DNA from: Longimicrobiales bacterium
GTDB lineage: Bacteria; Gemmatimonadota; Gemmatimonadetes; Longimicrobiales; Gaopeijiaceae
Direction: 5' to 3'
DNA: 64,000 bases
Assembly: GCA_965203485.1 (NCBI GenBank)
Contig: OZ241892.1
Coordinates: forward strand, 1,824,001-1,888,000
The notes under the pieces are model-generated. The model saw only the letters and a program-made list of their open reading frames with translations, was not told the origin of the DNA and ran no database searches. Below, one piece after another: positions 16,504 through 35,203 of the stretch. A program made the position numbers and the translations under genes. Position 1 is the stretch's first letter, and each line of letters begins with the position of its first letter.

Positions 16504-18543
16504 CTAAAGGATGTAGCGGCTCAGGTCGGAGTCGGACACGACCGGTTGCAGGCGTGCTCTCACGAACGCGGCGTCCACCTCCCAGTCGGACGCTTCCTCG
16601 GGCAGGCCGAACATCATCTTCTCCATGACGGAGATGAGGACGGTCTGCAATCTGCGGGCGCCGATGTTCTCCATGCGCTCGTTGAGCTCGGCCGCAACCC
16701 GCGCGATCTCCTCCAAGCCGTCGTCCGTGAACGTGACCGTCGCGTCTTCGACCTGGATGAGCGCGGCGTACTGTCGGATCAGCGAGTTGTGCGGTTCCTT
16801 GAGAATCCGCACGAAGTCGGTCGCGTCGAGGCTTCTGAGCTCCACTCGGATGGGAAAGCGGCCCTGGATCTCGGGAATGAGGTCCGAGGGCTTGGAGACG
16901 TGGAACGCGCCCGCCGCGATGAAGAGGATGTGCTCGGTGGAGATGAGGCCGTACTTCGTCTGCACGTTGCAACCTTCGACGACCGGAAGCAGGTCGCGCT
17001 GAACCCCTTCCCTGCTTACGTCGGGCCCCGCCCCGCGCTGGGGCGCGGCGATCTTGTCGATTTCGTCGAGGAAGACGATGCCGCTCTCCTCTACCCTGTC
17101 CATGGCGTCGAAGATCACGTCCTGGGTGTCCACCAGCTGGTCCAGTTCGTCCGAGAACAGGAACCGCCTCGCCTCGGCGACGGTGACCGTGCGCTGCTTC
17201 GTCTGCTTGGGAAGCATGTCGCGCAACGTTTCGGTGAAATGGACGTCGACGTCCTCCATGCGGCCGCCCGGGTTGGTCATCGCGTCGAAGAGCGGCGAAG
17301 TATGCCGAGTTTCCATCTCCACCATGCGGTTCTCGAGTTCCCCCTTTCTGAGGAGGGCCCGAAGCTTCTCGCGGGTGCGCGCGAGGCGGTCGGTCATGGG
17401 CCGGTCGTCGGACTCCGGCTCGTCGGCGTCAGCGGGCGCCTCGGCGGCATTCGCCGACTGCTCGTCCCCGGCCCCCGCTTCACCGGGCGGCAGAGGAGAT
17501 TCGGACGACGCGCCGCTTCGCGGAGCTGCCGTATCCTCGCCGCCGCCGGTCCGCCGCGCCACGCCGTCCTTGCCCGCCAGAAACGCCGCCGCCGATTCCT
17601 CGTCCAGCGCCGCCGCGCCGCGCCGTTCCGCGTCGCCGTCGCCGCCGCCCGCCGCGCCGGGAGCTTCCTTGTCGCCGCCCTTGTCCGGCCGCTCCGGATC
17701 CGGATCGGCGCGGCGGCCGGCCCGCTTGCGGGGCTTCTCGGCAGAGTCGGGGAGGAGCAGGTCGAGCAGCCGCTCTTCCGCGCGCCTGCGCGCTTCGGGC
17801 GCCATCTCTTCTTCGCGCTCGTTGCGCACCATGTTGACCGCGGTGTCCGCCAAGTCCCGTATCATGGCCTCTGCGTCGCGGCCCACGTAGCCCACCTCCG
17901 TGAACTTCGACGCCTCCACCTTGACGAAGGGAGATCCCGACAACCGCGCCATCCGCCGGGCGATCTCGGTCTTCCCCACGCCGGTCGGCCCGATCATGAT
18001 GAGGTTGTTGGGGAAGATTTCTTCGCGAAGCTGCGTGTCCTTGACCTTCTGGCGCCGCCAGCGGTTGCGGAGGGCGACTGCAACAGCCTTCTTGGCCTCG
18101 GACTGGCCGACGATGTACTTGTCGAGTTCGGCTACGATCTCGGCCGGCGTCAGGTTGATCAGCCAGTCGAGGAGTTCGTCGGAGAATTCGTCGTCGTCAA
18201 TGCCGTCTTCGTCGTCGTCGCACTCCGCGCTGGTCTCGTCGCGAGCGGCGCCGTGCCCTTCGCCGTTGTCGTCGCCGACGGCGCCCGCGTCGTCCGCATC
18301 TTCGCCGTCGCCGGCCTCGGCGGCAGGGGCGGGCGCGCGGCCGGCGAGCCGGGGAAGCTCGGGAGAGGAAGCGATGCTGGGCCTGCGCGCTCGTCCTCGT
18401 CCGGGGGCGTGGGCGGAGGAGGACAGCTGGCCGGCGGACCACCCTTGTTCAGGCGCGTGGCCGGCGACGGGCCGAGGCTTGGCGGCACCGCCTGGCCGGG
18501 CATGGAGAGACGCGGGAGTTGCGGGCGCGTCGGTGGGACTCAT
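16504..18543 (-). CDS. hslU: ATP-dependent protease ATPase subunit HslU with long N-terminal extension and I-domain insertion
   Basis: ATG overlaps hslV stop (ATGA); [55 protein letters not shown], terminal SRYIL. Confidence 0.95.
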
Positions 18544-19103
18544 GACGGTTTCAGTTCCTCGACCGTGATCTGGGAGTTGGTGTAGACGCAGATGTCGGCG
18601 GCGATCTCCAGCGCCCGGCGCGCGATGGTGGGAGCGTTCATGTTGGTGGATTCGTGCAACGCTCGCGCCGCGGCCAGCGCATAGCCGCCTCCCGATCCGA
18701 TGGCCAGTACCGGGACATCCGGCTCGATGACGTTGCCGTCGCCTCCGACCAGCAGCAACCGCTTGCGGTCGGCGACCGCCAACACAGCTTCGAGGCGGCG
18801 GAGGTAGCGGTCGGTCCGCCATTCCTTGGCCAGTTCCACGCAGGCCCGGGGAAGGTTCGAGGGCCAGCGGTCCAACATCGAATCCAGCTTGGCGAACAGC
18901 GTCACTGCGTCCGCCAACGCACCCGCGAAGCCTGCGAGTATCTGGCCGTTGCCCAAGCGCCGAACCTTCTGAGCGGCGGCCTTGACGACCATGTCGCCCA
19001 TCGTAACCTGGCCGTCTCCGGCCATGGCGACGCGTCCGCCCTTGGAAACCGCGATCACGGTGGTGGCCCGGACGTCGGAAGCAGGGCGAAAGGGAGACGT
19101 CAT
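18540..19103 (-). CDS. hslV: ATP-dependent protease peptidase subunit HslV
   Basis: ATTVIAV (catalytic Thr after short propeptide), [20 protein letters not shown]. Confidence 0.96.
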
Positions 19104-19168
19104 GGAAGCGGCGCTGGAAGGAGACCGGACGGAACTGCACGCTCGAATCGGCGTCGGGAAGACGAACA

Positions 19169-19199
19169 AGTTTAACCCCGAAGCCGGGGCTGGTCTCAA
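19169..19199 (-). promoter_or_regulatory. Possible sigma70-like promoter for hslVU
   Basis: Minus strand TTGAGA-19 nt-TAAACT; spacer longer than ideal and contains a ccccg/cgggg inverted repeat. Confidence 0.3.
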
Positions 19200-19350
19200 G
19201 TCGTCATAAGCCGAATCGCTTCGGCACGGAGACGCCGGCGTCCGCGAATTGCCGTTCGGAGCGCCGGGGCGTCGTGAAGAGCTGGTTGGCCGGGCATCGA
19301 CGGATGCGGCGGCGCGGATATCAAAGTTGGGCGAATGCGAAGCGCGGCAG

Positions 19351-19388
19351 GCCTCCCCGACGCCGGGGACTGTTGCGGCGGGGAGGCT
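19351..19388. terminator. GC-rich stem-loop just downstream of the giant gene
   Basis: gcctccccg ... cggggaggc 9-bp inverted repeat ~40 nt after the stop; no U-tract on the minus strand. Confidence 0.3.
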
Positions 19389-19426
19389 TGGCGCGCTTTT
19401 TGGCCGGCGGAGCCGTGCCGGGGGGT

Positions 19427-22400
19427 CTACCTGAGCTGGATGGCGCCTGCGATGCCGAGGCGGCGTTGCGGGGGTTCGAGCGGCGAGGAGGCGTGCTCGC
19501 CGTAGAGGTGGAGGAGGAAGCGCAGGCTCTGGGCGGGGTCTGCGGGCGAGTGCACGCCCGTGCCGGACTGGGCGGACGGGCCGAGCAACGAGAAGCGCGC
19601 GCCGGCGTTGAAGCGCTGGCCGGCGCCTGCGTCCTGGCTCCAGCGTCCGAAGGGCGTGATCGTGGCGCCGTTGTCGAGCGCGACGCCCCAGCCGAGTTCC
19701 ATGGCCATGCGCCCGGGCGCCCAGCCGGACGGCGCGGCCGTCGGCGCCGTTTGCACGGCGGGTTCGAGCGCGGCGGCGCCTTGGCGCCAGAGTTCGCCCG
19801 TGGCGCCCGCGCCGGCGCCCCATGCCGGCTCGACGGAGAGCGACAGGCCGTCCTCGGCGCCGCCGCCGGGCTGGAGCCGGAGCGAGACGCCGGCGCCCCA
19901 TTCGCGCAAGCCCTCGGCCTGGTGCGCGAGCAGCGCGCGCCCGCGCATCGCGACGGACAGGCCGGTGGGCGCGTGGTCGAACGACGCTTCGCCGCCCGCC
20001 TCGGCGCCGAGGCCGGTCTCGGCGTCGCCGGCGTCGAGGCGCGCGCCGAGCTCGAGCCGCGTGCGCAGCGACGCTTCGCCGCCGAGCGCCCAGGTCTTCG
20101 CGACTTCGGGCGCGAGCCGGACGCGGTGCGCGCGCGCGGTCACGCCTGCCAGGTCGGCCGCGTCGTCGGAGCGCACGCGCACGGAGAACGCGTCGGCCTT
20201 GAGCGCGATGCCGCCCGCCAGCTCGCGGCGCGCGCCGAGCGCGCCCATCAGCATCGCGATGTCGGCGCCGAACCGGCCGCCGGCCGTCTCCTCGAGCGTC
20301 GCGTCGCCGGTTCCGGCGCCTGCGAGGGCCCAGAGGCCGAGCCCGCCGGTGGGCGACCAGTGCACGTAGGGATGCACGCTGGTCAGGCTCGCGGCGACGG
20401 AGCCCGCGCCGTTGACGGCGCTCTCGAACTCGGTCTCGAAGCTGCTGCGCGCGCCGGCGACGCCGACGAGCAGGCCGGACGCGAAGCGGTAGTCGGCGCC
20501 GAGGTGCGCCGAGCGCGCGCGCCCGCCGTCGAAGCGCAGGCCGTCGGCCGGGCGGCCCTCGTAGCCGCCCATGCCGGCGCGGCCCCAGACGGTCCAGCCG
20601 GGACGCAGGCCGGCGGCGTCCTGCGCGCCGAACGCGCCCGAGTCGCTGGCCGCGCCGCCGCCGAGCGAGAGCTGGAACGAGCTGCGCTCGAGCAGGTCGC
20701 CGCCCGACAGCGGATTGAGCGTCACGCCGCCCGGCGTGGCCGCCGCCGGCTCCTGCTGGCCCCGGTAGTCGCCGCCCATGCCGAGGCCGCCGCCTGCCGG
20801 ACCGCCGAGTCCGCCTGCTCCCGCGCCCGGGCCGCCGAACAGCAGCGCGGCCGGGTCGAGCGCGCCAGCGGACGGCGCGCCGCCCAGGCCGCCGGCGCTC
20901 GGCAACGCGACTTGGACGCCGAGCAGGCCGGACGCGGCGCGCGCCAGCGCCTGCCAGCCGCACGCTCGAGCGCCCGTTTCGGCGCCCGCCCCCGCCTGCG
21001 CGGCCGCCCCGGCGGCTCCAACCCGGTCCTCCGCCCGTTGCGCGAAGCCGCCGTCGCACCCCACGGCGCGTCCTCCGAGCTGGAGGTGCGAGCGTCCGAG
21101 TCCGCCGGCCGACTCGATCCCGAGCCTGCCGCCGATCACGTCGACGGCCTCGGCGCCGAGCGAGCGCCCGAACGCGGCCAGCGCGCCCTCGAGCACGCGC
21201 GCTCGCTCGGAGCGCGACGCCTCGACGACGACGGCGACGGTCTGCTCGGCGGCCAGCCCGCCGGGATCGGTCGCCGTCACCGTCACGCTCGCCGTGCCGA
21301 TAGCGAACGGCTGGATGGTCAGCACGCCGCCCGCAACGCTCGCCGCCGCCACCGCCGTGTCGGACGACTCGGCGGCGTACGCGAGCGCGTCGCCGTCCGG
21401 GTCCCGGAAGTACGCGTCCAGCGTCTCCTGCACGGCCGCGCCGTGCGCGTCGAGCGCCGCGACGGCGATCTGCGCCGTCGCTTCGGGCGCCTCGTTGACG
21501 TCGGTCACGACGACGGTCGCGTTCGCCGTCGCCGCCAGGCCGCCCCTGTCCGTCGCGGCGACGACGAGCGCGTGCTCGCGCGGACCCGTCTCGTAATCCT
21601 CGCCGGCGCCGACGTAGCGCACGGCGCCGCTCGATGCGTCCAGCTCGAACAGGCCGCCGCCGTCCGAGACGAGGCTGTACGACAGCACGTCGCCCTCGTC
21701 CTCGTCGGCGGCGGCGACGGCGCCGACGGCGAGCGGGCCGGCCGCGTTCTCGGCCAGCTCGAACGTCCAGCTCGCCTGCTCGAACACGGGCGCCTCGTTC
21801 ACGTCGGCGACCGTCACGACGACGGCCGCCTGCGCGGCGAGGCCGTCGGCGCCCGTCGCGGCGACGACGAGCGCGTGCTCGCGCGGGCCCGTCTCGTAGT
21901 CCTCGCCCGCGCCCACGTAGCTGACCGCGCCGCTCGACGCGTCCAGCTCAAACAACCCGCCGCCGCCCGAGACCAGGCTGTACGACAGCGCCTCGCCCTC
22001 GTCCGGGTCGGTCGCGCTGACCGTGCCCAGCACGACTGGGCCGGCCGCGTTCTCGGCCAGCTCGAACGTCCAGCTCGCCTGCTCGAACACGGGCGCCTCG
22101 TCGGCGTCGGCGACGGCTATCACGACGCCGGCCGCCGCTCGCAATCCACCAGCGTCGGCGACGGCGACGGCCAGCGCGTGCTCGCGCGGACCCGTCTCGT
22201 AGTCTTCGCCGGCGCCGACGTAGCGCACGGCGCCGCTCGATGCGTCCAGCTCGAACAGCCCGCCGCCGCCCGAGACGAGGCTGTACGACAGCGCCTCGCC
22301 CTCGTCCGGGTCGGTCGCGCTGACCGTGCCCAGCACTATGGGCCCGGCCGCGTTCTCGGCCAGCTCGAACGTCCAGCTCGCCCGCTCGAACGCCGGCGCC

Positions 22401-25400
22401 TCGTTCGCGTTCGTCACCTTCACCGTCACGCGGACGGTCGACGCGAGGCCGCCGACGTCGGCGGCCGACACGACGAGCGCGTGCTCGCGCGGGCCGGCTT
22501 CGTAGTCTTCGCCCGCGCCGACGTAGCTGACCTCGCCGCTCGTCTCGTCCACCTCGAACAGGCCGCCGCCGCCCTCGCGCAGCCGGTAGTACACCTCGTC
22601 GCCCTCGTCCGGGTCCACGGCGCTCACGGCGCCCACGACGACGGCGCCCGCCACGTTCTCGGCCAGCTCGAACGCGTACGACTCGGCCCCGAACTTCGGC
22701 GGCCGCCCCGGCTCCGGCTCGCCGCCGCCGCCCTCGACCCTGCGCGTCGGATCGCTTGCGAACGCATGGCTGCCCAGCGACAGCGCGGCCGGCGTCGAAC
22801 CGTCGGCGGCCGACACGATCGCGGCGCCGCTCGCGTCCAGCGCGCCGGCGGCCAGCGCGATCCCGTTCGGCGCGCGGTCGTGAGGACGCACCTCGTACGC
22901 GAACTCGACGCGCCGCCCGCTCGCCGACGCCAGCGCGGCGTGAACCGTGCGCGTGCCCATCGCCAGCGCCAGACGCGGGCCGCCCGTCACGCTCACCGGC
23001 CGGTCGAACACGACGGCGATCTCGATCGTCTGGCCGGCGCGCCACCGGCCGCCCGACTGCGGACGGCTCGCTTCGACGCCCGCGACCGCAGGCGGCGACA
23101 CGACGCTGCCGTCCACCAAGTGGCCGCCGACGTTCGTCAGCGCGTGGCCGCCCAGCGACAGTCCAGCCGCCGCCGTGCCGCCCAGCAGCGTGATCGCGCC
23201 GCCGTTCAGCGACAGCGCGCCCGCGCCCACGCTCAATCCGTCCGCGTCGGCGTCCGCCGCCTGAACGGCGTACGCGAACTCGAGCGCCGCGCCCTGCGTC
23301 GCGCCCAACGCGCCGGCGGAACCGCCTGCGCCGCCCGCCGACCCGCCGGCCCAGCGCGCGCCTGCATAGCCCGCCGCGACGCCGGCCCAGCCCGCGCGCG
23401 CGGCGGCGCCGTAGCCGACGACGCGCACGAAGCGCGCCGTGCGCGTCTGCGCGCCGATCGTCAGCGCCAGCTGCGGCGAGCCCGTCACGGCGACGGCGCG
23501 GTCGAAGCGCACGTGCACGCGGATCTCCTCGCCCAGCTCGTAGCGCCCGCCGCCGATCGGCGCGCTCGCCAGCGTCACGCCCGCCACGGCAGGCGCCGTC
23601 TCGGCGCTCCCGTCCACCAGGTGGCCCGCGACGTTCGACAGCGCGTGCGTGCCCAGCGACAGCACCGCCGCCACGCGCCCGCCCGCGATCACGATCGTCC
23701 CGCCGTTCAAGGCCAGCGCGCCCGCCGCGACGCTCACGCCGTCGGCGTCGGCGTCGCCGCCCGCGACGACGTAGCCGAACACCAGCTCGGCCGTGCCGCT
23801 CCCGCTCGCGTAGCCCGCCTGCCGCGTCGCGCTCCCGATGCCCAGCGCCAGCTGCGGCGCGCCCGCAACGTCGACCGGACGGCTGAACGCCAGCGCGACG
23901 GCGATCCGCTCGCTCAACCCGTACGCGCTCCCGTTCGCAGGCGACGAGACCAGCCGCGCGCCCGTCACTACCGGCGCCGCCTCGAGCGTGCCGGCGACGG
24001 CGTGGCCGCTCGCGTTCACTATCGCGTGGCTGCCCAGCGACAGAACCGCCGCCGCCGTGCCGCCCGCGACCACCAGCGTCCCGCCGCTCAGCGACAGCGC
24101 GCCCGCGCCAACGCTGATCCCGTCCCTGTCGGCGTCCGCCGCCTGAACCACGTACGCGAACTCGAGCTCGGACGTGCCGCTCCCGCTCGCGTAGCCCGCC
24201 TGCCGCGTCGCAGCGCCGATGCCGAGCGCCAGCTCGGGCGTGCCCGTCACCGCCACCGCGCGGTCGAAGCGCACCGCCACCCGTATCTCCTCGCCCAGTC
24301 CGTACGACCCGCCGCCCGACGGCGCGCTCGCCAGCCGAGCGCCCGCAACCGCCGGCGCGCCCTCGACGCTGCCGTCCACCTTGTGCGCGCCAGCGTTCGC
24401 AATCGCGCTCGAGCCCAGGCCCAGGCCGGCCGCCGTCGACCCGTCGCGCGCGTCGGCTATCGCGCCGCCGTTCAACGACAGCGCGCTCGCGCCCACGCTG
24501 ATCCCGTCGGCGTCCGCGTCCGCGGATGCGACCACGTAGCCGAACACCAGCGCGCGCGTCCCGCTGCCGCCAGCGTAGCCCGCCTGCTTCGTCGCAGCGC
24601 CGATGCCCAGCGCCAGCTGCGGCGCGCCCGTCACGACGACCGGGCGCGCGAACGTCACCCGTACCTCGATGCGCTCGCTCAACCCGTACGTGTCGCCGCT
24701 CGCCGGCGCGCTCGTCACCGACGCCGCGCTCGGCGACGACGCCGTGAACGTCCCGCCCGCCACCTTGTGGCCCGCGCTGTTCGCCACCGCGTGCGCGCCC
24801 AGGCCCAGCAAAGCGTCGGCCGTGCCGCCCGACACCTTGATCGTCCCGCCGTTCAGCGCCAAAGCGCCCGCCGCGACGCTGATCCCGTCGGCGTCCGCGT
24901 CGGCGGACACGACCACGTACCGGAACGCCAGCGCAGCCGTGCCGCTCCCGCCCGCGTAGCCCGCCTGCTTCGTCGCAGCGCCGATGCCCAGCGCCAGCTG
25001 CGGCGCGCCCGTCACCGCCACCGGCTTGTTGAACTCGACCTCGACCTCGACCGTGTCGCCGCGCTCGAACGTGTCGCCCACCTGCGGCGACCCGATCGTC
25101 ACGCCCATCACCCCCGGCGGGCCGCGCGTCGCGTCCACGCGGTGGCCCGCAGCGTCCGCGACCGCGCTCGACCCCAGGCCCAGCGCCGCCGCCGTCGAAC
25201 CGTCGCGTCCGTCCGCGATCGTCCCGCCGTTCAGCGCCAAAGCGCTCGCGCCGATGCTGAGCCCGTCGGAGTCGGCGTCGCCCGCGACGACCACGTAGCC
25301 GAACGACAGCTGCGGCGTCCCCGTGCCGCCCGCGTAGTCCGCCTGCCGCGTCGCAGCGCCGAACGACAGCGCCAGCTGCGGCGTGCCCGTCACCGCCACA

Positions 25401-28400
25401 GCGCGCGCAAACGTCACCCGAACCTCGATCCGCTCGCCCAACCCGTACGTCGCGCCGCTCGCAGGACTGCTCGCGACCGCCACCCCCGTCACGCCAGACG
25501 CCGTGAACGTCCCGCCCGCCACCTTGTGGCCCGCGCTGTTCGATATCGCGTGCGTGCCCAACCCCAAAGTCGCGTCCAGCGTGCCGCCGGCCAGCCGAAC
25601 CGTACCGCCGTTCAATCCCAGCGCCGTCGTCGCGACGCTCAACCCGTCGGCGTCCACGTCCGCCGTCACCACCACGTAGCGGAACTCGAGCGACGACGTG
25701 CCGCTCCCGCTCGCGTAGACCGCCTGCTTCGTCGCGCTCCCGATCCCCAGCGCCAGCTGCGGCGCGCCCGTCACCGCCACCGCCCGGTTGAACGCCAGCG
25801 TCGCCACGATCGTGTCGCCCCGCTCGAACGTCGTGCCCACCGGCGGCGAGCCGAGCGTCACGCCCGTCACCCCGGGCGGCCCCAGGCTCCCGTTCACCTT
25901 GTGCGCCAAAGCGTTCGATATCGCATGGCTCCCCAGGCCCAGGCCCGCAGCCTCGCTCGCGTCGCGCGCGTCGTCGATCGCACCGCCGTTCAACGCCAGC
26001 GCGGCCGGCCCGACGCTCAAACCGTTCGCGTCGGAGTCCGCAGCCACCACCACGTAGCCGAACGCCAGCGTCTTCGTGCCGCTCCCGCTCGCGTACGACG
26101 CCTGGCGCGTCGAGTCGCCGATCGTCAACGCCAGCTGCGGCGTGCCCGTCACCGCCACGTTGCGGTCGAACGTCACCTCGACCTCGATCCGCTCCGTGCG
26201 ACCGTACGTGCTGTCGCTCGCTGGACTGCTCGATATCGACACCCCGCTCACCGACGACGCCGTGAACGTCGCGCCCGACACGCGCAACGCGCCGTCGTTG
26301 CCGATCGCATGGCGCTCCAGGCTCAGCAACGCGTCCGTCGTCCCGCCCGCAACGTCGATCGTGCCGCCGTTCAGCGCCAGCGCGCTCGCGCCCACGCTCA
26401 ACCCGTCGGCGTCAGCGTCCGCCGTCGCCACCACGTACCGGAACACCAGCGCCGCCGTGCCCGTCCCGCTCGCGTACGCCGCCTGCCGCGTCTGCGCCCC
26501 GATCCCCAGCGCCAGCTGCGGCGTCCCCGTCACGTCCACCGCCTTGTTGAACCGCACCGTCGCAACAATCGTGTCGCCGCGCTCGAACACCGCGCCCGCC
26601 GGCGGCGGCGCCACCGCCAACCCCGTCACCCCAGGCGGGCCCAACCCGCCGTTCACCTTGTGCGACGCAGCGTTCGTTATCGCGTTCGACCCCAAATCCA
26701 GGCTCGCAGCCGTCGCGCCCGGACGCGCGTCGTTGATCGTCCCGCCGTTCAACGCCAGCGCGCCCGCCGCGATGCTGAGCCCGTCCGCGTCCACGTCGGT
26801 CGGACGGACCGCGTACCCGAACACCAGCGTGTCCGCACTGCTCGACGCCGAATCGTAGTCCGCCTGGCGCGTCGCCGTCCCGATCCCCAAAGCCAGTCGC
26901 GGCGTCCCCGTCACCGCCACCGGACGGCTGAACGCCACCTTCACCTCGATAGACTCGCCCAGCTGGTACGTGCTCGCGCTCGCTGGCGCGCTCGACACCG
27001 TCACCGCGCTCACCGAAGGCGTCGTGAACGTCCCGCCCGCAACCTTGTGACCCGCGCTGTTCGTCACCACCACGCCCGCGCCCAGCCCCAGCGTCGCGTC
27101 CAGCACCCCGCCGGCGACCTTGATCGTTCCGCCGCTGAGCGCCAATGCGCTCGCTGCGATGCTGATCCCGTCCGCGTCGGCGTCGCCCGCCGCCACCACG
27201 TACCGGAACACCAGCGTGTCCGTGCCCGTCCCGCTCGCGTAGTCCGCCTGCCTGGTCGCGCTCCCGATGCCCAGCGCCAGTTGCGGCGTCCCCCCCACGT
27301 CCACCGGCCGGCTGAACACCACCGACACCTCGATCGTCTCGCCGCGCTCGAACGTCGTGCCCGCCACCGGCGAGCCGATCGACAGCGACGCCACGCCCGG
27401 CGGGCCCAGGCTCCCGTTCACCTTGTGCGAACGATCGTTCGCGACCGCATGGCTGCCCAAACCCAGGCTCGCCGCCGCCGTGCCGTCGCGCGCGTCGTTG
27501 ATCGCGCCGCCGTTCAACGCCAGCGCGCTCGCTCCGATGCTGATCCCCGTCGAGTCCGCGTCCGCAGCCACCACCACGTACCGGAACACGAGCGTCCGCG
27601 TCCCGCTCCCGCTCGCGTACGCCGCCTGCCGCGTCGCCGTCCCGATCCCCAGCGCCAGCTGCGGCGTCCCCGTCACCGTCACCGCGCGCACGAACTCGAC
27701 GGCCACCTCGATCCGCTCCGTGCGTCCGTACGTGCTGTCGCTCGACGGCGCGCTCGTGATCGCCACCCCGCTCACCGACGCCGCCGTCAGCGTCCCGCCG
27801 TCCACCTTGTGGCCCGAGCTGTTCGTCACCGCGTGGCCGCCCAACCCCAGCACCGCGTTCGTCGTCCCGCCCGCCTGCCGTATCGTCCCGCCGTTCAAGC
27901 TCAAAGCGTTCGCCGCTATGCTGATCCCCAGCGTGTCCGCGTCCGCAGCCACCACCACGTACCGGAACACCAGCGTGTCCGTCCCCGTCCCGCTCGCGTA
28001 CGACGCCTGCCTGGTCAGCGTGTCGACCGCCAGCGCCAGCTGCGGCGTCCCCGCAACGTCCACCGCCCGGTTGAACGCCACCGCCACCTCGATCGCGTCG
28101 CCTCGCTCGAACACGTCGCCCGACGGCGGCGACCCGATCGACAGACCGCTCACCACCGCACCAAGGCTCCCGTCCACCTTGCGCATCCCGTCGTTCGCAA
28201 TCGCCAACCGCCCCAACCCCCAAAACGGCGGCCGCACCGAATGCTGCGACTGCACGTTGCCGCCCGTGATCGCGTTCGCCGCGATGCTGATCCCGTCCGC
28301 GTCAGCGTCCGCCGCCTGTACCACGTAACGGAACCTCAGCGGGTTGTAGGTGTTGCCGCCCCCGAGCACCATCGACGCCTGCCGCGTCTGCGTCCCGATC

Positions 28401-31400
28401 CCCAGCGCCAACTGCGGCCCCGCGCCGCTGACCAGGACGGCCGTGTGGCTCAACGACACCGTCACCTCGATCGTCTCGCCCACACCGTACGTGCCACCCG
28501 AACCCGGACTGCTCACCGCAATCCCGCTCACGCCCGCCCTGTGCGTCGGATTCGTCGCCGTGCCCGTGTAGGCGCGCCCAAAGTCCAGCAACGCCGCATC
28601 GCTGCTCCCCGCACGCCGGATCGTGCCGCCGTTCAGAGCCAGAGCATCGCGCGCCACGCCGATCCCGTCGTCGTCCCTCGGGTCGTAGCCGTGCATCTGA
28701 TAACGAAAAACCAGCGTCGCCGTCCCCGTCCCGCTCGCATACGCCGCCTGCCTAGTCGCCGTCCCGATCACGATCGCCACCTGCGGCGTGCCCACAACGT
28801 CCACCGCCGCGCTGAACTCGACCGTCACCTGCATCCAGTCGCCCGCCACGAACTGATTCCATTGGCTCGTCGGCGGAACGGTGTTCAACGTCACCGACAG
28901 CACGCGAGCCGGCCGCACGCGGCTCCCGTCCACCTTGTGGCCCGTACTGTTCGAAACCGCGCTCGATCCCAAACCCAGACCCGCAGCAACCGAAACGTCG
29001 CGCGCGTCCGCTACCGTGCCGCCGTTCAGCCCCAGCGCGCCCGCCCCGATGCTCAACCCGTTCGTGTCCGCGTCCGCAGCCACCACAGCGTACCGGAACA
29101 ACAGCGTGTCCGTCCCCGTCCCGCTCGCGTACGACGCCTGCCGCGTCGAGCTCCCGATCCCGATCGCCAGCTGCGGCGTCCCCGTCACCGCCACCAGCCG
29201 CGTGAACGCCACCGCCACGTCGATCGTGTCGCCCAGCAAGTACGTGTCGCCGCCCGACGGAACGCTCGCCACCGACACACCGCTCACCGACGCCGCCGTC
29301 AGCGTCCCGCCGTCCACCTTGTGCCCGGCGCTGTTCGTGATCACGTGCCACGTCTGCAACTCCAGCAATGCGTTCGCCGTGCCGCCCGTCACCGCAATCG
29401 TGCCTCCGTTCAAGCCCAATGCGCCCGCGCCCACGCTCAACCCGTCCGCGTCAGCGTCCCCGGACGCCACCACGTACCGGAACGCCAGCGACCCCGACCC
29501 GCTGCCAGACGCGTAGCTCGCCTGCCGCGTCGCCGTCCCGATCGTCAGCGCCAGCTGCGGCGTCCCCGTCACCGTCACCCACCGCCCGAAACTCACCCTC
29601 GCCTCGATCGTGTCGCCCCGCTCGAACACGTCGCCCGTCACCGGCGACCCCAACGACACCCCCGTCACCACCGGCCGGTCGCCCGCCACCTTGTGCGCCG
29701 CCGCGTTCGCAATCGCATGGCTGCCCAATCCCAGCGCCGCCGCCGCCGAGCCGCCCGCTATCTCGATCGTCCCGCCGTTCAATGCCAACGCGCTCGTCCC
29801 GATGCTCACCCCGTCCGCGTCGCTGTCCGACGGCCCCACAGAATACTGGAACGTCAGCGTGCTCGTGCCCGTCCCGCTCGCGTACCCCGCCTGCCGAGTC
29901 GCCGCCCCGATCCCCAATGCCAACTGCGGCGTGCCCACAACGTCCACCGCACGGTCGAACGCCACCTCGACTCGGATCGCCTCGAACCGGTGGTACGTCG
30001 AATCCGTACCCGCGTCGCTCGCAATCGCCACACCGCTCACCCCAGGCGCCACCTCCTTCGTCCCGTCCACCTGGAACAACGCCGAGTTCGCGAAGTTCCA
30101 CGGCGCCAACGACAAGTTCGCGCCCGTCGTGCTCCCCGTCGCTCGAAGCGTCGCGCCGCCCGGCAACGTCAATGCGTTCGCGCCGACGCTGATCCCGTCC
30201 GAATCGCTGTCCGCAGCCACCACCGTGTAGCAGAACACCAACACGTTGGCTCCTGTCGTATCGCACAGCACAGCGCTCCGCGTCTGCGTGCCAATCCCCA
30301 ATGCCAAACGCGGCGTCCCCGTCGCCGTCACCGCCACGCCGAAGCTGACCGCCGCGCGTATCTCGTCGCCAAGACCGAACACGCTGTCCGTGCTCGCATA
30401 CGTCAACCCCGTGTTCGCCGGCGTCACGAAGAACACGCCCGACACCGTCGGCGGGCCGCCCAACACCTTGTGCGCCGCCGCGTTCGCGATCGTGTGAACC
30501 TGCAAACCCAAGTACGCGTTCACCGTCGCCGACCCCGCCCGCCGGATCGTCCCGCCGTTCAGAGCCAACGCGCCCGCGCTCACGCTCAATCCGTCCACGT
30601 CCTCGTCCCCAGGCGCCACCACGTACCGGAACACCAGCGAATCGCCCCCCGTCCCCGTCGCGTAGCCCGCCTGCTTCACCGCCGACCCGATCCCCAATGC
30701 CAGCTGCGGCGTGCCCGTCACGTCCACGTTCTCGTTGAACACCAACCCGACCTCGATCGTGTCGCCCGACGCATACGTGCTGTCGTTCCCCGCGTCGCTC
30801 GCAATCACCGTGCCCGTCACGTGAGGCACCGCCTGAGCGCCGTTCACCTTGTGCGCCGCCGCGTTCGCGATCGCGTGGCTGCCCAGACCAAGGTTCGCGA
30901 CCGCCGATCCGCCTGCTATCTCGATCGTCCCACCGTTCAGAGCCAAAGCGCTCGCGCCGATGCTCAACCCGTCCGAGTCGCTGTCCGTCAGCACAACCGT
31001 GTAGCGGAACCTCAAGGAGCGAGTTCCGGTGCCCGCCGCGTAGCCAGCCTGTCGCGTCTGCGTCCCGATCCCCAGCGCCACCTGCGGCGTCCCCGTCGCG
31101 TCCACCGGGCGGTCGAAGTCGACCTTGACCTCGATCGTGTCGCTTGCCCCGTACGTCGAGTCGGCGCCCGCGTCGCTGCTGATCGTCACGCCGCTCACGT
31201 TCGGCGCCGCCTCCTGGGCGCCGTCAACCTGGAAAGCTATGTCGTTCGTGACCTCGAATCCGGCCAGCGACACGTTCGCGTCCGTCGTCGTCCCCTGCCG
31301 CCGAATGTAGGCCCCCGACCCGGTAGGAAACGTCAGCGCGTTCGCGCCGATGCTGATCCCGTCCGAGTCCATGTCCGCCGCCACGACCGTGTAGCAGAAT

Positions 31401-34075
31401 AACGCAAACCTGGCGGCGCGGGCGCACCCCGGGGCCTGCCGCGTCTGCGTCCCGATCCCCAGCGCCAGTTCCGCATGTTGCGTCTGCGTCGTCAGAATAT
31501 CAACGTTCGTGTTGAACCCAACGGCCACCCAAATCTGGTCCCCAAGCCCGAACACGCTGTCCGTGCTCGCAAAGAACTTCTGCACCCCCAGCGGGGTCAC
31601 GAAAAACATGGCCGTCACGTAGGGCACGTCGCCCGTCACCTTGTGCCCCGACGCGTTCGAGATCGCGTTCGTCCCCAACCCCAAGTTCGCGGCCGTCGTG
31701 CCGCCCGCGATCCGGATCGTCCCGCCGTTCAGCGCCAGCGCGCTCGCGCCGATGCTGATCCCGTTCGCGTCGCTGTCCGTCAGCACAACCGTGTAGCGGA
31801 ACCTCAAAGACTTGGTGCCCGAGCCCGCCGCGTAGTCCGCCTGCCGCGTCAGCGTGTCGATCCCCAGCGCCACACGCGGCGTTCCCGTCACGTCCACCGG
31901 ACGGTCGAAGTCGACCTTGACCTCGATCGTGTTGTCTTCGGCGTACGCGCTGTCAGCGCCCGGGTCGCTGCTGATCGTCACGCCGCTGACGTTCGGCGCC
32001 ACCTCCACGGTGCCGTCCACCTTGTAGGCCACATTGTTCGTGAACGTGTGGTCAGCCAGCGACACGTTCGCGTCCGTCGTCGTCCCCTGCCGCCGAATGT
32101 AGGCCCCGGACCCGGCAGGAAACGTCAGCGCGTTCGCGCCGATGCTGATGCCGTCCGCGTCCACGTCCGCCGCCACGACCGTGTAGCAGAAGAACGCAAA
32201 CCTGACGTTCTGGCCGCACAGCGGGGCCTGCCGCGTCTGCGTCCCGATCCCCAGCGCCAGTTGCGCCTGCGTCTGCGTCGTCGACGCAATCCTAATGTTC
32301 GTGTTGAACCCAACGATCACGCGAACCACATCCCCCGATCCGTAGACGCTGTCCGTGCCGGCATGGAATATCTGCACCCCCTGCGGGTTCGCGAAAAAGA
32401 TGGTCGTCACGTAGGGCACGTCGCCCGTCACCTTGTGCCCCGTCGCGTTCGAGATCGCGTGGCCGCCCAGACCAAGGTTCGCGTTCGCCGATCCGCCCTT
32501 GAGCTCGATCGTCCCGCCGTTCAGCGCCAGCGCGCTCGCGCCGATGCTGATGCCGTCCGCGTCCGCGTCCGCCACGACCACTGCATAGCGGAACCTCAAA
32601 GACTTGGTGCCCGTGCCCGCCGCGTAGTCCGCCTGCCGCGTCTGCGTCCCGATCCCCAGCGCCACCTGCGGCGTTCCCGTCACGTCCACCGGACGGTCGA
32701 AGTCGACCTTGACCTCGATCGTGTTGCCTTCGGCGTACGCGCTGTCAGCGCCCGGGTCGCTGGAAATCGACACGCCGCTCACGTTCGGCGCCACCTCCTT
32801 CGTGCCGTCCACCTTGAAAGCGGCATTGTCCGTGTTGTCGTGCGCCGCCAGCGACAGGATGGCGTTCGTCGACGTGCCATGCCGCCGGATCGCGCCCCCG
32901 GGTATGGTCAGCGCGTTCGCCCCGATGCTGATCCCCGTCGAGTCCCTGTCCGCCGCCACGACCGTGTAGTTGAAGTACAGTGAGTGGGCGGTAAACGCGT
33001 AGAAGGTCGCGGTTCTCGTGTTCGCCCCGATGGTCAAGGCCAGCCGCGGCCACTGAGTGTGCCAGCTGATCGACCTGTCGAACGTCACCTTCACCCTGAT
33101 GACGTCTTCCAGCCCGAAGGTGCTGTCCGCCGCCGCCTGCGTCATGACAGCGCCGTGTTCGGTGATGTATTCCACGGCGGATACGACCGGCGGCGTCACC
33201 TTGGTGCCGTCCACCTTGAAGGCCACATTGTTCGTGACCTGGTGGTCAGCCAGCGACAGGTCGGCGTTCGTCGTCGTCCCCGCGGCAACGACCCGGGCTC
33301 CGCCAGGCAGCGTCAGCGCGTTCGCGCCGATGCTCAACCCGTCCGAGTCGCTGTCCGCCGCCACGACCGTGTAGCAGAAGATCAAGAAGGACGCCACTGA
33401 GTTGCACAGCGGCGCACTCCGCGTCTGCGACCCGATGTTCAGCGCCAGCTGCGGCGTTCCCGAGCCCCTCACGTCCCTGCTGAATCGGACGGCCACCCTG
33501 ATCCGGTCGCCCACCCCGTAGACGCTGTCGGCCTGTTCGAGGTTCGCTAGGAGGATCTGGACTCCGCGGGTCGGATGAAGGAACCAAACGGACGCCACGG
33601 CGGGAACGTCGCCCTGCACCTTGTGGGCCGTCGCATTCGAGATTGCATGGGTGCCCAGCCCCAGGTTCGCGGCCGTCGCGCCGCCCGCGATCTGGATCGT
33701 ACCGCTGTTGAGCGCCAGCGCGCTCGCGCCGATGCTGATCCCGTCCGCATCGACGTCCGTGGTCGCTACCGTGTAGCGGAAAGTCAGCGTGCTCGTGCCC
33801 GTCCCGCTTGCGTAATTCGCCTGCTGCGTCGCCGCGCCGATCGTCAGCGCCAACTGCGGCGTGCCCGTCACGTCCACCGACTGGTCGAAACGAACTTCGA
33901 CCCCGATCACGTCGGTCGCGGCGTACGTCGAGTCGACGCCCGCGTTGCTGCTGATCGACACGCCGCTCACGTTCGGCGCCTGGGCGCTCGCGGCGACCGG
34001 CAACCCGGCGGCAACCAGCCCGGCGACCACCAGCGCCAGGCCGAGAGCCGAAAGAAGCCTTCGCGCTACCGGCAT
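19427..34075 (-). CDS. Giant repetitive surface protein / autotransporter-like adhesin (~4,880 aa): signal peptide, 29 Ig-like repeats, 4 cadherin repeats, 1 CADG-like Ig domain, C-terminal beta-barrel
   Basis: Uninterrupted 14.6-kb ORF; signal [32 protein letters not shown]; repeated [12 protein letters not shown]..TRQAxY..GT..LxFRY.V...DxDxDGISI; helical linker then amphipathic strands (WTVWGRA, LLVGVAG, VHPYVHW). Start may be 34075, 34093 or (slipped) 34170. Confidence 0.9.
21490..22702 (-). repeat. Four tandem cadherin-like repeats, 303-nt period
   Basis: [47 protein letters not shown] with Ca-binding AEN, DxD, DYE and DxNE motifs; shared DNA at 21738, 22041, 22344. Confidence 0.9.
22705..33979 (-). 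repeat. Array of 29 Ig-like ~125-aa repeats with higher-order dimer structure
   Basis: Counted by eye from the translation; 792-nt near-identical duplication (e.g. 31621 vs 32413); alternating FERG-type and DARD-type units in the middle. Confidence 0.88.
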
Positions 34076-34134
34076 GGCGGCTTTGCCGCGCACGCCGTGG
34101 CCGTCGCACGGGTAATGTCGAGTCGAAGGAGAAC

Positions 34135-34154
34135 GGGGGGGGGGGGGGGGGGGG
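34135..34154 (-). repeat. Homopolymer G20 (C20 on the coding strand) at the 5' end of the giant gene
   Basis: 20 consecutive G at 34135-34154; the only run of such length seen in the window. Confidence 0.93.
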
Positions 34155-34303
34155 CTTGGGTCCGATCCATTGCTATGCCGACCTTGGTTCTAGGTTGCCT
34201 TCCTGCATGTTCGGCGACAATCGCACCACGAGCGGCCGACCCGGCACCGAATCTCCACGACGATCGCCGGAAGATAACCGGTCAATCAAGATTCCGACCA
34301 AAG

Positions 34304-35203
34304 CTACGCTCGCGGATGGGCGTTCAGGTAGACCCGGCGGAGCCGATCCTTGGACGTATGGGCGTAGATCTGCGTCGTGTCGAGCGAGACGTGGCCCAAG
34401 AGGTCCTTGACGGCCATGATGTCGGCGCCGGCGTCGAGGAGATGGGTCGCGAAGCTGTGCCGAAGCGAGTGGACCGACAAGCCGGCGGCGGCGGAGAAGT
34501 CGGCGAGGGCCGCTTGCACTGCCCGCTGGATGTAGCGCGTCGAGATGCGCCCCCCCCGGAGGTTCACGAAAAGCGCCCGGCAATGCGGAGGGGCCACTTC
34601 CGCCCGGCGCAACAGGTAGTTTTCGACGGCTTTCGCAGCGGGCGGCGTGACCGGGACGATGCGCTCCTTGGACCCCTTGCCCACGACCCGGATTTGGTCG
34701 TCCAGAAAGGAGTTGACGTTCAGCGAGCGAAGCTCCGATACGCGCAGGCCGCTGCCGTAAAGCAGTTCCAGCCACGCCAGGAGGCGCGCGCAAGCAAAGT
34801 CGTTCTCCCGGGCGGCGCGCGTTTCCGCCCACTCGAGGAGCGCCTCGATCTCGTCCAAGCTGGCGTGGCCGGGCAGGATGCGGTCCAGCTTCGGGCCGCG
34901 CATGGCGGCGGCGGGGTTGGACTCGATCTCGCCGGTGCGATGCAAGTGCCGGAAGAGGCTGCGCACGGCCGACAGCTTGCGGGCGACGGTGCGACGGGAG
35001 AGTCCGCGGCGCCCGGCTTCCCCGAGGAACGCCCGCAAGACCGGCCTGTCCACGTCGGCCCATGCGAAGTCGGGACGCCCCAGATAGCCGCCGACGAATT
35101 CCTCGAGGTCGGCCAGGTCGCGACGGTAGGCGGCGATGGTGTGGGCCGAGAGCCGACGGACGGTCTCGATGTGTTCGAGGAACCGAGCGGTGTCCGTCCT
35201 CAT
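34304..35203 (-). CDS. xerC: Tyrosine recombinase XerC
   Basis: LSAHTIAAYRRDL, LLYGSGLRVSEL, GKGSKER, HSLRHSFATHLL, LLGHVSLDTTQIY, HPRA end; topA-trmFO-xerC-hslVU context. Confidence 0.93.
   Translation of the reverse strand: MRTDTARFLEHIETVRRLSAHTIAAYRRDLADLEEFVGGYLGRPDFAWADVDRPVLRAFLGEAGRRGLSRRTVARKLSAVRSLFRHLHRTGEIESNPAAAMRGPKLDRILPGHASLDEIEALLEWAETRAARENDFACARLLAWLELLYGSGLRVSELRSLNVNSFLDDQIRVVGKGSKERIVPVTPPAAKAVENYLLRRAEVAPPHCRALFVNLRGGRISTRYIQRAVQAALADFSAAAGLSVHSLRHSFATHLLDAGADIMAVKDLLGHVSLDTTQIYAHTSKDRLRRVYLNAHPRA

Follow-up and report, generated by a model that had tools for sequence, protein, structure and literature searches.

The genome of a Longimicrobiales bacterium (GenBank assembly GCA_965203485.1, contig OZ241892.1) carries a giant open reading frame (ORF) that is preceded, on the minus strand, by an uninterrupted run of 20 cytosines lying between two possible start codons. 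This locus raises the question of how the length of the run affects synthesis of the giant protein, and whether the assembled length represents a silent or an expressing state. An earlier reading of the DNA from its letters (hereafter the sequence-only reading) regarded the run as a stochastic switch that is OFF at 20 C, with reinitiation at the downstream ATG as a leak. We analyzed a window of 64,000 nucleotides (nt), positions 1,824,001 to 1,888,000 of the forward strand of this 3.56-Mb one-contig genome (69% G+C; G000), and compared it with two genomes of the same genus (G001 and G002). Labels beginning with T or L denote tract loci or leaders, and coordinates without a prefix are those of the window.

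The giant ORF (19427..34075, minus strand) encodes 4882 amino acids (aa) from an ATG at 34075 (start 2), and its frame is open upstream through the poly-C tract (34135..34154, minus), which is 20 nt long in the assembly and longer in some contigs described below. Read on the minus strand, a weak Shine-Dalgarno (SD)-like AAGGT (34185-34181) is followed after 10 nt by an ATG (start 1, 34168..34170), 16 nt before the tract, and then by 13 nt, C20 (34154-34135) and GTT, with the giant-gene frame continuing through the tract into MPVARRLL at 34075. In silico, run length sets the frame between ATG 34170 and the gene, and by arithmetic the two are in frame only at C18, C21 and C24. With 3n C, ribosomes from ATG 34170 would enter the gene frame and add approximately 38 residues before the signal peptide, the added stretch containing a run of seven prolines in the C21 product. 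With 3n+1 C, the frame from this ATG stays open for 295 codons outside the gene frame. With 3n+2 C, ribosomes would terminate 7 nt beyond AUG 34075; thus, at the assembled C20, start 1 opens a 34-aa upstream ORF (34066..34170, minus) whose TAG (34068-34066) begins 7 nt past the A of the second AUG. The run, the upstream ATG, the 34-aa peptide and the in-frame lengths C18 and C21 had all been reported by the sequence-only reading, and were exact when we re-read the minus strand. Its statement that no other homopolymer of such length occurs also held, the second-longest G/C run in the window being 8 nt, and this uniqueness is limited to the window and does not extend to the genome.

We propose that the C20 run would slip by one base during replication, heritably changing the frame after ATG 34170, and that three states would result. 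At C18, C21 or C24, read-through would fuse the leader ORF to the giant gene. At 3n+2 C, which includes the assembled C20, the upstream ORF would end beside AUG 34075, and a coupled restart would occur there. At C19, C22 or C25, the gene would be off. In the coupled state, upstream ribosomes would melt a predicted hairpin and terminate beside AUG 34075, unmasking start 2, and its product, the native preprotein, would be less abundant than the product of read-through. A cell population would thereby vary its display of a costly autotransporter-like adhesin. We hold this three-state slipped-strand switch tentatively, at slightly less than an even chance, while a frame-dependent switch operating from the upstream ATG, whether with three states or two, appears likely. 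The use of ATG 34170, slipping in vivo, the coupling and the relative levels of the products are what we infer from the evidence that follows.

Counts of single-base runs across G000 showed that the tract is not a chance feature. G/C runs fell steeply with length to 2 of 11 nt and 0 of 12-13 nt, and were followed by 42 of 14-30 nt; A/T runs ended at 8 nt. Because runs of 12-13 nt were absent but 42 of 14-30 nt were present, C20 belongs to a separate, non-chance class. According to gene calls made in this analysis, a run of at least 12 nt lay within 400 nt upstream of 9/12 ORFs longer than 3000 aa, as compared to 11/2225 other genes. When 19 other tract-associated frames of G000 were scanned for families, 6 matched methylase or restriction families, and the remaining matches were to TonB-receptor, sugar-transferase, deacetylase, SGNH, sulfotransferase, MutS and S1 families, together with one weak AAA match; 3 frames had none. 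The tract class is targeted to giant surface genes and methylase/restriction genes, and many tracts in G000 are non-coding. Poly-C just past the start codon recurs in paralogous giant genes, in G001 and in G002, where the sequence-only reading had suggested looking for it. G/C runs of at least 12 nt numbered 42 in G001 and 11 in G002, and 7, 3 and 0 in the single-contig genomes G007, G011 and G039. Three fragmented assemblies gave counts of 35 (G006), 35 (G021) and 176 (G040, 830 contigs), which may be real repertoires or platform artefacts.

To ask whether tract length varies, contigs from four sequencing runs (X1-X4) were compared with the assembly. X1, X2 and X3 are three runs of one sample, possibly the assembly's own source, and X4 derives from another sample of the same study. 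Contigs of X1 carried one additional C at depth 21, two at depth 13 and five at depth 3.2, with flanks at 90; those of X2 carried one additional C at depth 100 and two at depth 54, with flanks at 450-468. X3 provided a single contig over the tract, with C21, and X4 provided none, leaving 34078-34165 without cover. Shorter tracts were not found among the contigs listed, which drop rare variants. The skew toward longer alleles is odd for symmetric error and is compatible with slipping, without being proof of it.

These data also bear on the possibility that the tract is a neutral expansion, or an artefact of sequencing or assembly, with no regulatory role. In its favor, the exact length is uncertain, long runs are error-prone, and the 830-contig G040 has 176 such runs. 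Against it, the flanking contigs ended on the G run in all three sequencing runs that cover the tract, the targeting to gene classes is strong, the same layout is present in two other species, and the single-contig genomes G007, G011 and G039 have only 7, 3 and 0 runs. We consider this explanation very unlikely and, as far as the existence of the tract is concerned, artefact is already largely refuted.

The contigs of X1-X3 also contained a related allele of the region 33900-34153, with 28 substitutions and four gap letters (depth 12/31/8.6), which is absent from the assembly. It is 89% identical in the leader and signal peptide, carries a separate C run, differs in its upstream flank and is present at 7-50% relative depth; it is probably a co-occurring strain or a paralogue. 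In this allele the TAG at 34068 is lost and there is one extra base at 34048. Counting by hand places the second ATG of this allele out of frame and leads its upstream-ORF frame into the gene, so that the allele must start upstream.

We next considered which start codon is used. The sequence-only reading had contrasted a start at 34170 preceded by an SD sequence with one at 34075 lacking it. This contrast was weak, as the predicted SD duplex energies were -3.9 kcal/mol at 34170 and -2.9 kcal/mol at 34075, and among 528 internal ATGs 44% had a stronger SD than 34170 and 61% a stronger one than 34075. Both starts are thus ordinary among internal ATGs in this respect, and SD strength was set aside as uninformative for telling them apart. 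Predicted accessibility did distinguish them. AUG 34075 and GUG 34093 are buried in a predicted 12-bp hairpin (34070..34097, minus; -22.2 kcal/mol), found in both the minimum free energy and the centroid structure. Of 200 reliable starts, 96% were predicted to be less closed than start 2, while start 1 had a typical accessibility (9.7 kcal/mol to open). Because AUG 34075 would be locked in this hairpin without a useful SD, it is predicted to depend on upstream ribosomes.

Start codons upstream of the tract are also a recurrent feature. An ATG no more than 16 nt upstream, a threshold taken from the window locus itself, was present in 5/8 other tract-bearing giants of G000 versus 12% expected (p 0.001). 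In G001 and G002, all 8 leaders used had an ATG or GTG 8-19 nt upstream, several with a GAGG-type SD. Across all G000 tracts, apart from a cluster of eight in tandem, an upstream ATG was found for 10/34 on the C-reading strand and for 3/34 on the G-reading strand; the corresponding numbers for 42 tract loci fetched from the relatives were 8 and 2.

Further evidence on the fate of the C20 allele came from comparing the three reading frames that leave the tract. For this purpose we used 16 leaders (8 from G000, 7 from G001 and 1 from G002), which fall into 10 sequence families; T33, L102 and L050, which lack a clear pair of starts, were excluded. Start 2 was predicted to be harder to open than start 1 in 15/16 of these leaders. 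The gene frame was open from the tract in 15/16. The +1 frame was open from the tract and had its first stop at -2, +1 or +7 of start 2 (stop-on-start) in 14/16, and the third frame stopped 19-289 nt before start 2 in 13/16. At the window locus the upstream stop is at +7, within 10 nt of the downstream start. Three leaders obtained after the idea had been noted (L095, L096 and L098) all fit, but are kin of earlier ones. When the window locus was left out, stop-on-start was seen in 8/9 families, where 3.4 were expected from 291 ordinary starts (p 0.002) and 4.4 from 206 secreted-like starts (p 0.014), and the third frame was closed in 7/9, where 2.9 were expected (p 0.002). Family members without a tract, for which starts were guessed, had stop-on-start in 2/9 genes. 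Ten non-giant tract genes gave a mixed result, clear in T04, T10, T29 and T32 and absent from T00, T08, T35 and T41. The TAG at +7 depends on a GTA codon, which makes up 1.8% of valine codons and was retained in 6/6 MPVAR-type genes while adjoining codons vary. Finally, in T11, an intact ORF of 5056 aa, a stop codon interrupts the gene frame between the tract and start 2, so that no fusion is possible, but the +1 frame reads through 74 codons up to a +7 stop.

Because stop-on-start occurs in 14/16 leaders, T11 cannot fuse and independent initiation at start 2 is predicted to be blocked, C20 is more likely the coupled, expressing state, with C19 and C22 representing the off state. The sequence-only reading is therefore supported in part. 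A slippage-type switch operating from the upstream ATG is in keeping with the targeted tracts, the start codons of the paralogues and the longer variants, but the assignment of C20 to OFF is not, and the same three observations argue against reinitiation at 34075 as a mere leak.

The closest alternative is a plain two-state switch, in which only ATG 34170 is used, the gene is ON at C18, C21 and C24 and OFF at every other length, C20 among them, and the second ATG is an internal methionine codon or a relic. The open gene frame in 15/16 leaders and the predicted closure of start 2 fit this explanation, as do T14, which has no MPVAR ATG, and the related allele with its out-of-frame second ATG; nalP and mspA operate in this way (PMC3723659). 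A two-state switch leaves unexplained a +1 frame that ends on start 2 in 14/16 leaders, the retention of the rare GTA codon and the intact but unfusable T11. Moreover, 0/7 fusable giants of G000 are in frame in the assembly. We regard it as doubtful.

A second alternative places the action of the tract in transcription or mRNA structure, through promoter spacing, DNA bending or the 5' untranslated region, with translation starting at 34075 regardless and the upstream ORF incidental. Consistent with this possibility, ATG 34170 has no good SD, tracts of promoter type exist at T33 and L102, and those upstream of mutS and rpsA have no ATG. In contrast, AUG 34075 lies in a predicted hairpin of -22 kcal/mol, upstream start codons are enriched, and the three frames are asymmetric. 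A sigma-70 scan found no consensus promoter near the tract, nor before the downstream gene hslV. On balance, this explanation is unlikely. Less probable still, and barely plausible in our view, is recoding at a fixed DNA length, in which product would be made at an unvarying low level because ribosomes slip on the C run (by tRNA-Pro re-pairing and polyproline stalling) or because RNA polymerase stutters. A pure C run is re-pairable in every frame, and G000 contains elongation factor P (EF-P) as well as intact mutS and mutL genes, all of which would suit this explanation. It is contradicted by near-identical paralogues that differ in tract length (C20 versus C18 in T06 and T07; C14, C14 and C18 in L045, L095 and L043), by the different lengths among the sequencing-run contigs and by the many tracts that are non-coding.

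Several observations weigh against the three-state switch itself. Start 1 has no convincing SD, and an ATG lies within 16 nt downstream of 7/34 tracts, as compared to 10/34 upstream. The tract-length variation that the sequence-only reading anticipated was found, as C21, C22 and C25, but in the contigs of one sample for which the platform is not recorded; it is not separable from sequencing error and is no more than compatible with slipping. Error in both HiFi and Nanopore reads increases with run length (PMC9713900). The third frame is not closed early at the window locus, T14 or T15 (827, 284 and 188 nt), and T06 and T07 break the +1 rule when read from the tract, where another +1-frame ATG sits 65 nt upstream. 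Promoter-type tracts do exist, since neither T33 nor L102 has an ATG upstream, and in both TTGACA directly follows the tract. Stop-on-start is common in the background, at 44% of ordinary and 60% of secreted-like starts. Openness of the gene and +1 frames, taken alone, was 7/8 each against leader shuffles, which was not significant (p 0.08), and the assembled states, with 5 leaders in fusion, 8 coupled and 3 in the third frame, showed no departure from uniform (p 0.30). The tests were post hoc with modest p values (0.002-0.014), and paralogues share ancestry.

Elsewhere in these genomes, tracts occupy other positions. The mutS ATG is preceded, at a distance of 81 nt, by the end of a C20 run (L093, G000:C1:2516940-2516959) that has no start codon upstream of it. 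This tract was not found in G001, G002, G007 or G011; it could tune mismatch repair and hence the switching rate. A C19 run (G000:C1:1037531-1037549) lies 89 nt upstream of rpsA, the essential gene for ribosomal protein S1. Within a more distant giant-gene subfamily, the C run abuts TTGACA, both in G000 (G000:C1:2790494-2790515, C22) and in G001 (L102:919-929 by reverse-strand count, C10), an arrangement that suggests a promoter-type tract conserved from G000 to G001. A paralogue of approximately 13,400 aa with about 90 repeats (G000:C1:2971339-3011540, minus) has a poly-G run (G22) in place of poly-C, and G002 has a 13,298-aa frame with C26. In the only close paralogue without a tract (G000:C1:1477524-1508857, minus), a frame break near 1499690 splits the gene. 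In one giant paralogue the stop codon is directly followed by a C18 run (G000:C1:1200221-1200238), at a position where the giant gene of the window has C6 (about 19420-19425). An in-frame C39 run (L110:967-1005) encodes 13 prolines inside a methylase-like gene of G001, and eight tracts lie in a tandem array of approximately 925-bp units, some with adjoining CT repeats (G000:C1:2327773-2332623).

The giant protein has the architecture of a surface protein. Start 2 opens a Sec-type signal peptide of 31 aa (33983..34075, minus; translation judged by eye), with a basic n-region, a hydrophobic core and a terminal A-S-A. It is followed by approximately 29 tandem repeats of about 127 aa (22715..33973, minus), predicted to form an immunoglobulin (Ig)-like beta-sandwich (predicted local distance difference test score, pLDDT, 92). 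The best structural match of the repeat model had a Z score of 8.1, followed by matches of 6.6-5.6 that included SbsC, an ice-binding adhesin, FdeC and invasin domains. A Foldseek search with the repeat gave no match at E<=0.001, and the closest Atlas clusters were unnamed or had Big_5 or Big_12 on 11-24% of their members. Next are four cadherin domains (21230..22680, minus; Pfam PF00028, E 5e-32, 4 stretches) with a weak Big_9 match below the cut-off (PF17963). The protein ends in a helix and a predicted C-terminal outer-membrane beta-barrel resembling that of an autotransporter (19430..21226, minus; pLDDT 71.5), modeled with 12 consecutive strands (210-451 of the domain) and about six further strands. 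The barrel domain has 4164 relatives at E<=1e-10, and was matched in 6/41 genomes searched; the three genomes of this genus had 16, 12 and 4 matches. Its top Foldseek match was the BrkA beta-domain (3qq2; E 3e-6, template modeling score to the target 0.61). Like BrkA, a type Va autotransporter of Bordetella, the giant protein combines a signal peptide, a long passenger, and a predicted helix and C-terminal barrel. It differs in having about six extra predicted strands and a passenger of Ig-like and cadherin domains. Classical type Va autotransporters have an aromatic C-terminal residue, while the giant protein ends in IQLR, with arginine last, and the whole protein had no Pfam Autotransporter match at E<=0.001. 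On these models the protein may work like an autotransporter, but with neither the Pfam match nor the aromatic last residue we have not filed it as type Va. The term adhesin used by the sequence-only reading agrees with this surface-type architecture; adhesion itself we infer from the domains.

Upstream of the giant gene lie topA, trmFO and xerC (34304..35203, minus), and a weak terminator-like hairpin is present directly past xerC (34278..34301, minus; 1 found versus 0.2 expected). Downstream are hslV and hslU (16504..19100, minus). Because xerC adjoins hslV in G001 and G002, with no giant gene between them, the giant gene is an insertion; the relatives have no orthologous giant-gene locus, G001 and G002 being without the insertion. 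The 330-nt spacer that separates hslV from the giant gene (19100-19426) retains a motif in common with the xerC-hslV spacer of G001. It is perhaps an hslVU promoter, which would protect hslVU from polar effects in the off state of the giant gene.

If a slipping run routes ribosomes to a coupled second start, one element would give three expression levels. ON/OFF calls made from genomes by frame treat every out-of-frame length as OFF, and would then be wrong for a third of alleles. Homopolymer phase variation, mostly studied in mucosal pathogens, would extend to surface proteins of 3,000-13,000 aa in an uncultured high-GC bacterium that retains mutS and mutL. A literature search, with most subscription papers outside its scope, yielded no report of phase variation in this bacterial group and none of a homopolymer-gated coupled restart. 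Poly-C phase variation of autotransporters is known already, as is coupling through overlapping stops and starts and hidden initiation regions. In its basic form the switch is ordinary; what is unexpected, and recurrent, is its three-state layout. It is possible, with a probability somewhat below one half, that this giant-adhesin family, in a lineage proficient in mismatch repair, has a conserved three-position switch that merges phase variation with coupling and gives two differently headed products.

Campylobacter jejuni, which is not known to have mismatch repair, has dozens of poly-G/C runs in surface-glycan and restriction-modification genes. In contrast, the runs described here are about twice as long and extend to nine giant surface genes, and the genome that holds them has 69% G+C and intact copies of mutS and mutL. 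In Haemophilus influenzae, lic1A yields more than two levels from one repeat tract, with several starts upstream of a tetranucleotide repeat; more than two levels are likewise proposed here, with the restart downstream of the tract. The nalP and mspA (ausI) genes of Neisseria meningitidis encode phase-variable autotransporters switched ON and OFF by 6-15 C inside one coding sequence (PMC3723659). They resemble the present locus in that an autotransporter-type surface gene has poly-C close to its 5' end and that length modulo 3 sets the frame. They differ in that the tract here, of 20 C (paralogues have 11-30), is placed between two starts and ahead of the signal peptide, and in that one out-of-frame state has its stop at the second start. 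Phase variation and translational coupling are handled as alternative classes in PMC3711429, which uses a stop-to-start distance of at most 10 nt as criterion. PMC6728339 describes coupling, by termination-reinitiation or by initiation dependent on upstream translation, for fixed gene pairs. Such pairs share with our leaders a stop and a start that overlap or lie within 10 nt (ATGA, TGATG, GTGA or +7), a weak SD and a start predicted to be buried in structure. Unlike in those pairs, the end point of the upstream ORF would here be set by a slipping homopolymer.

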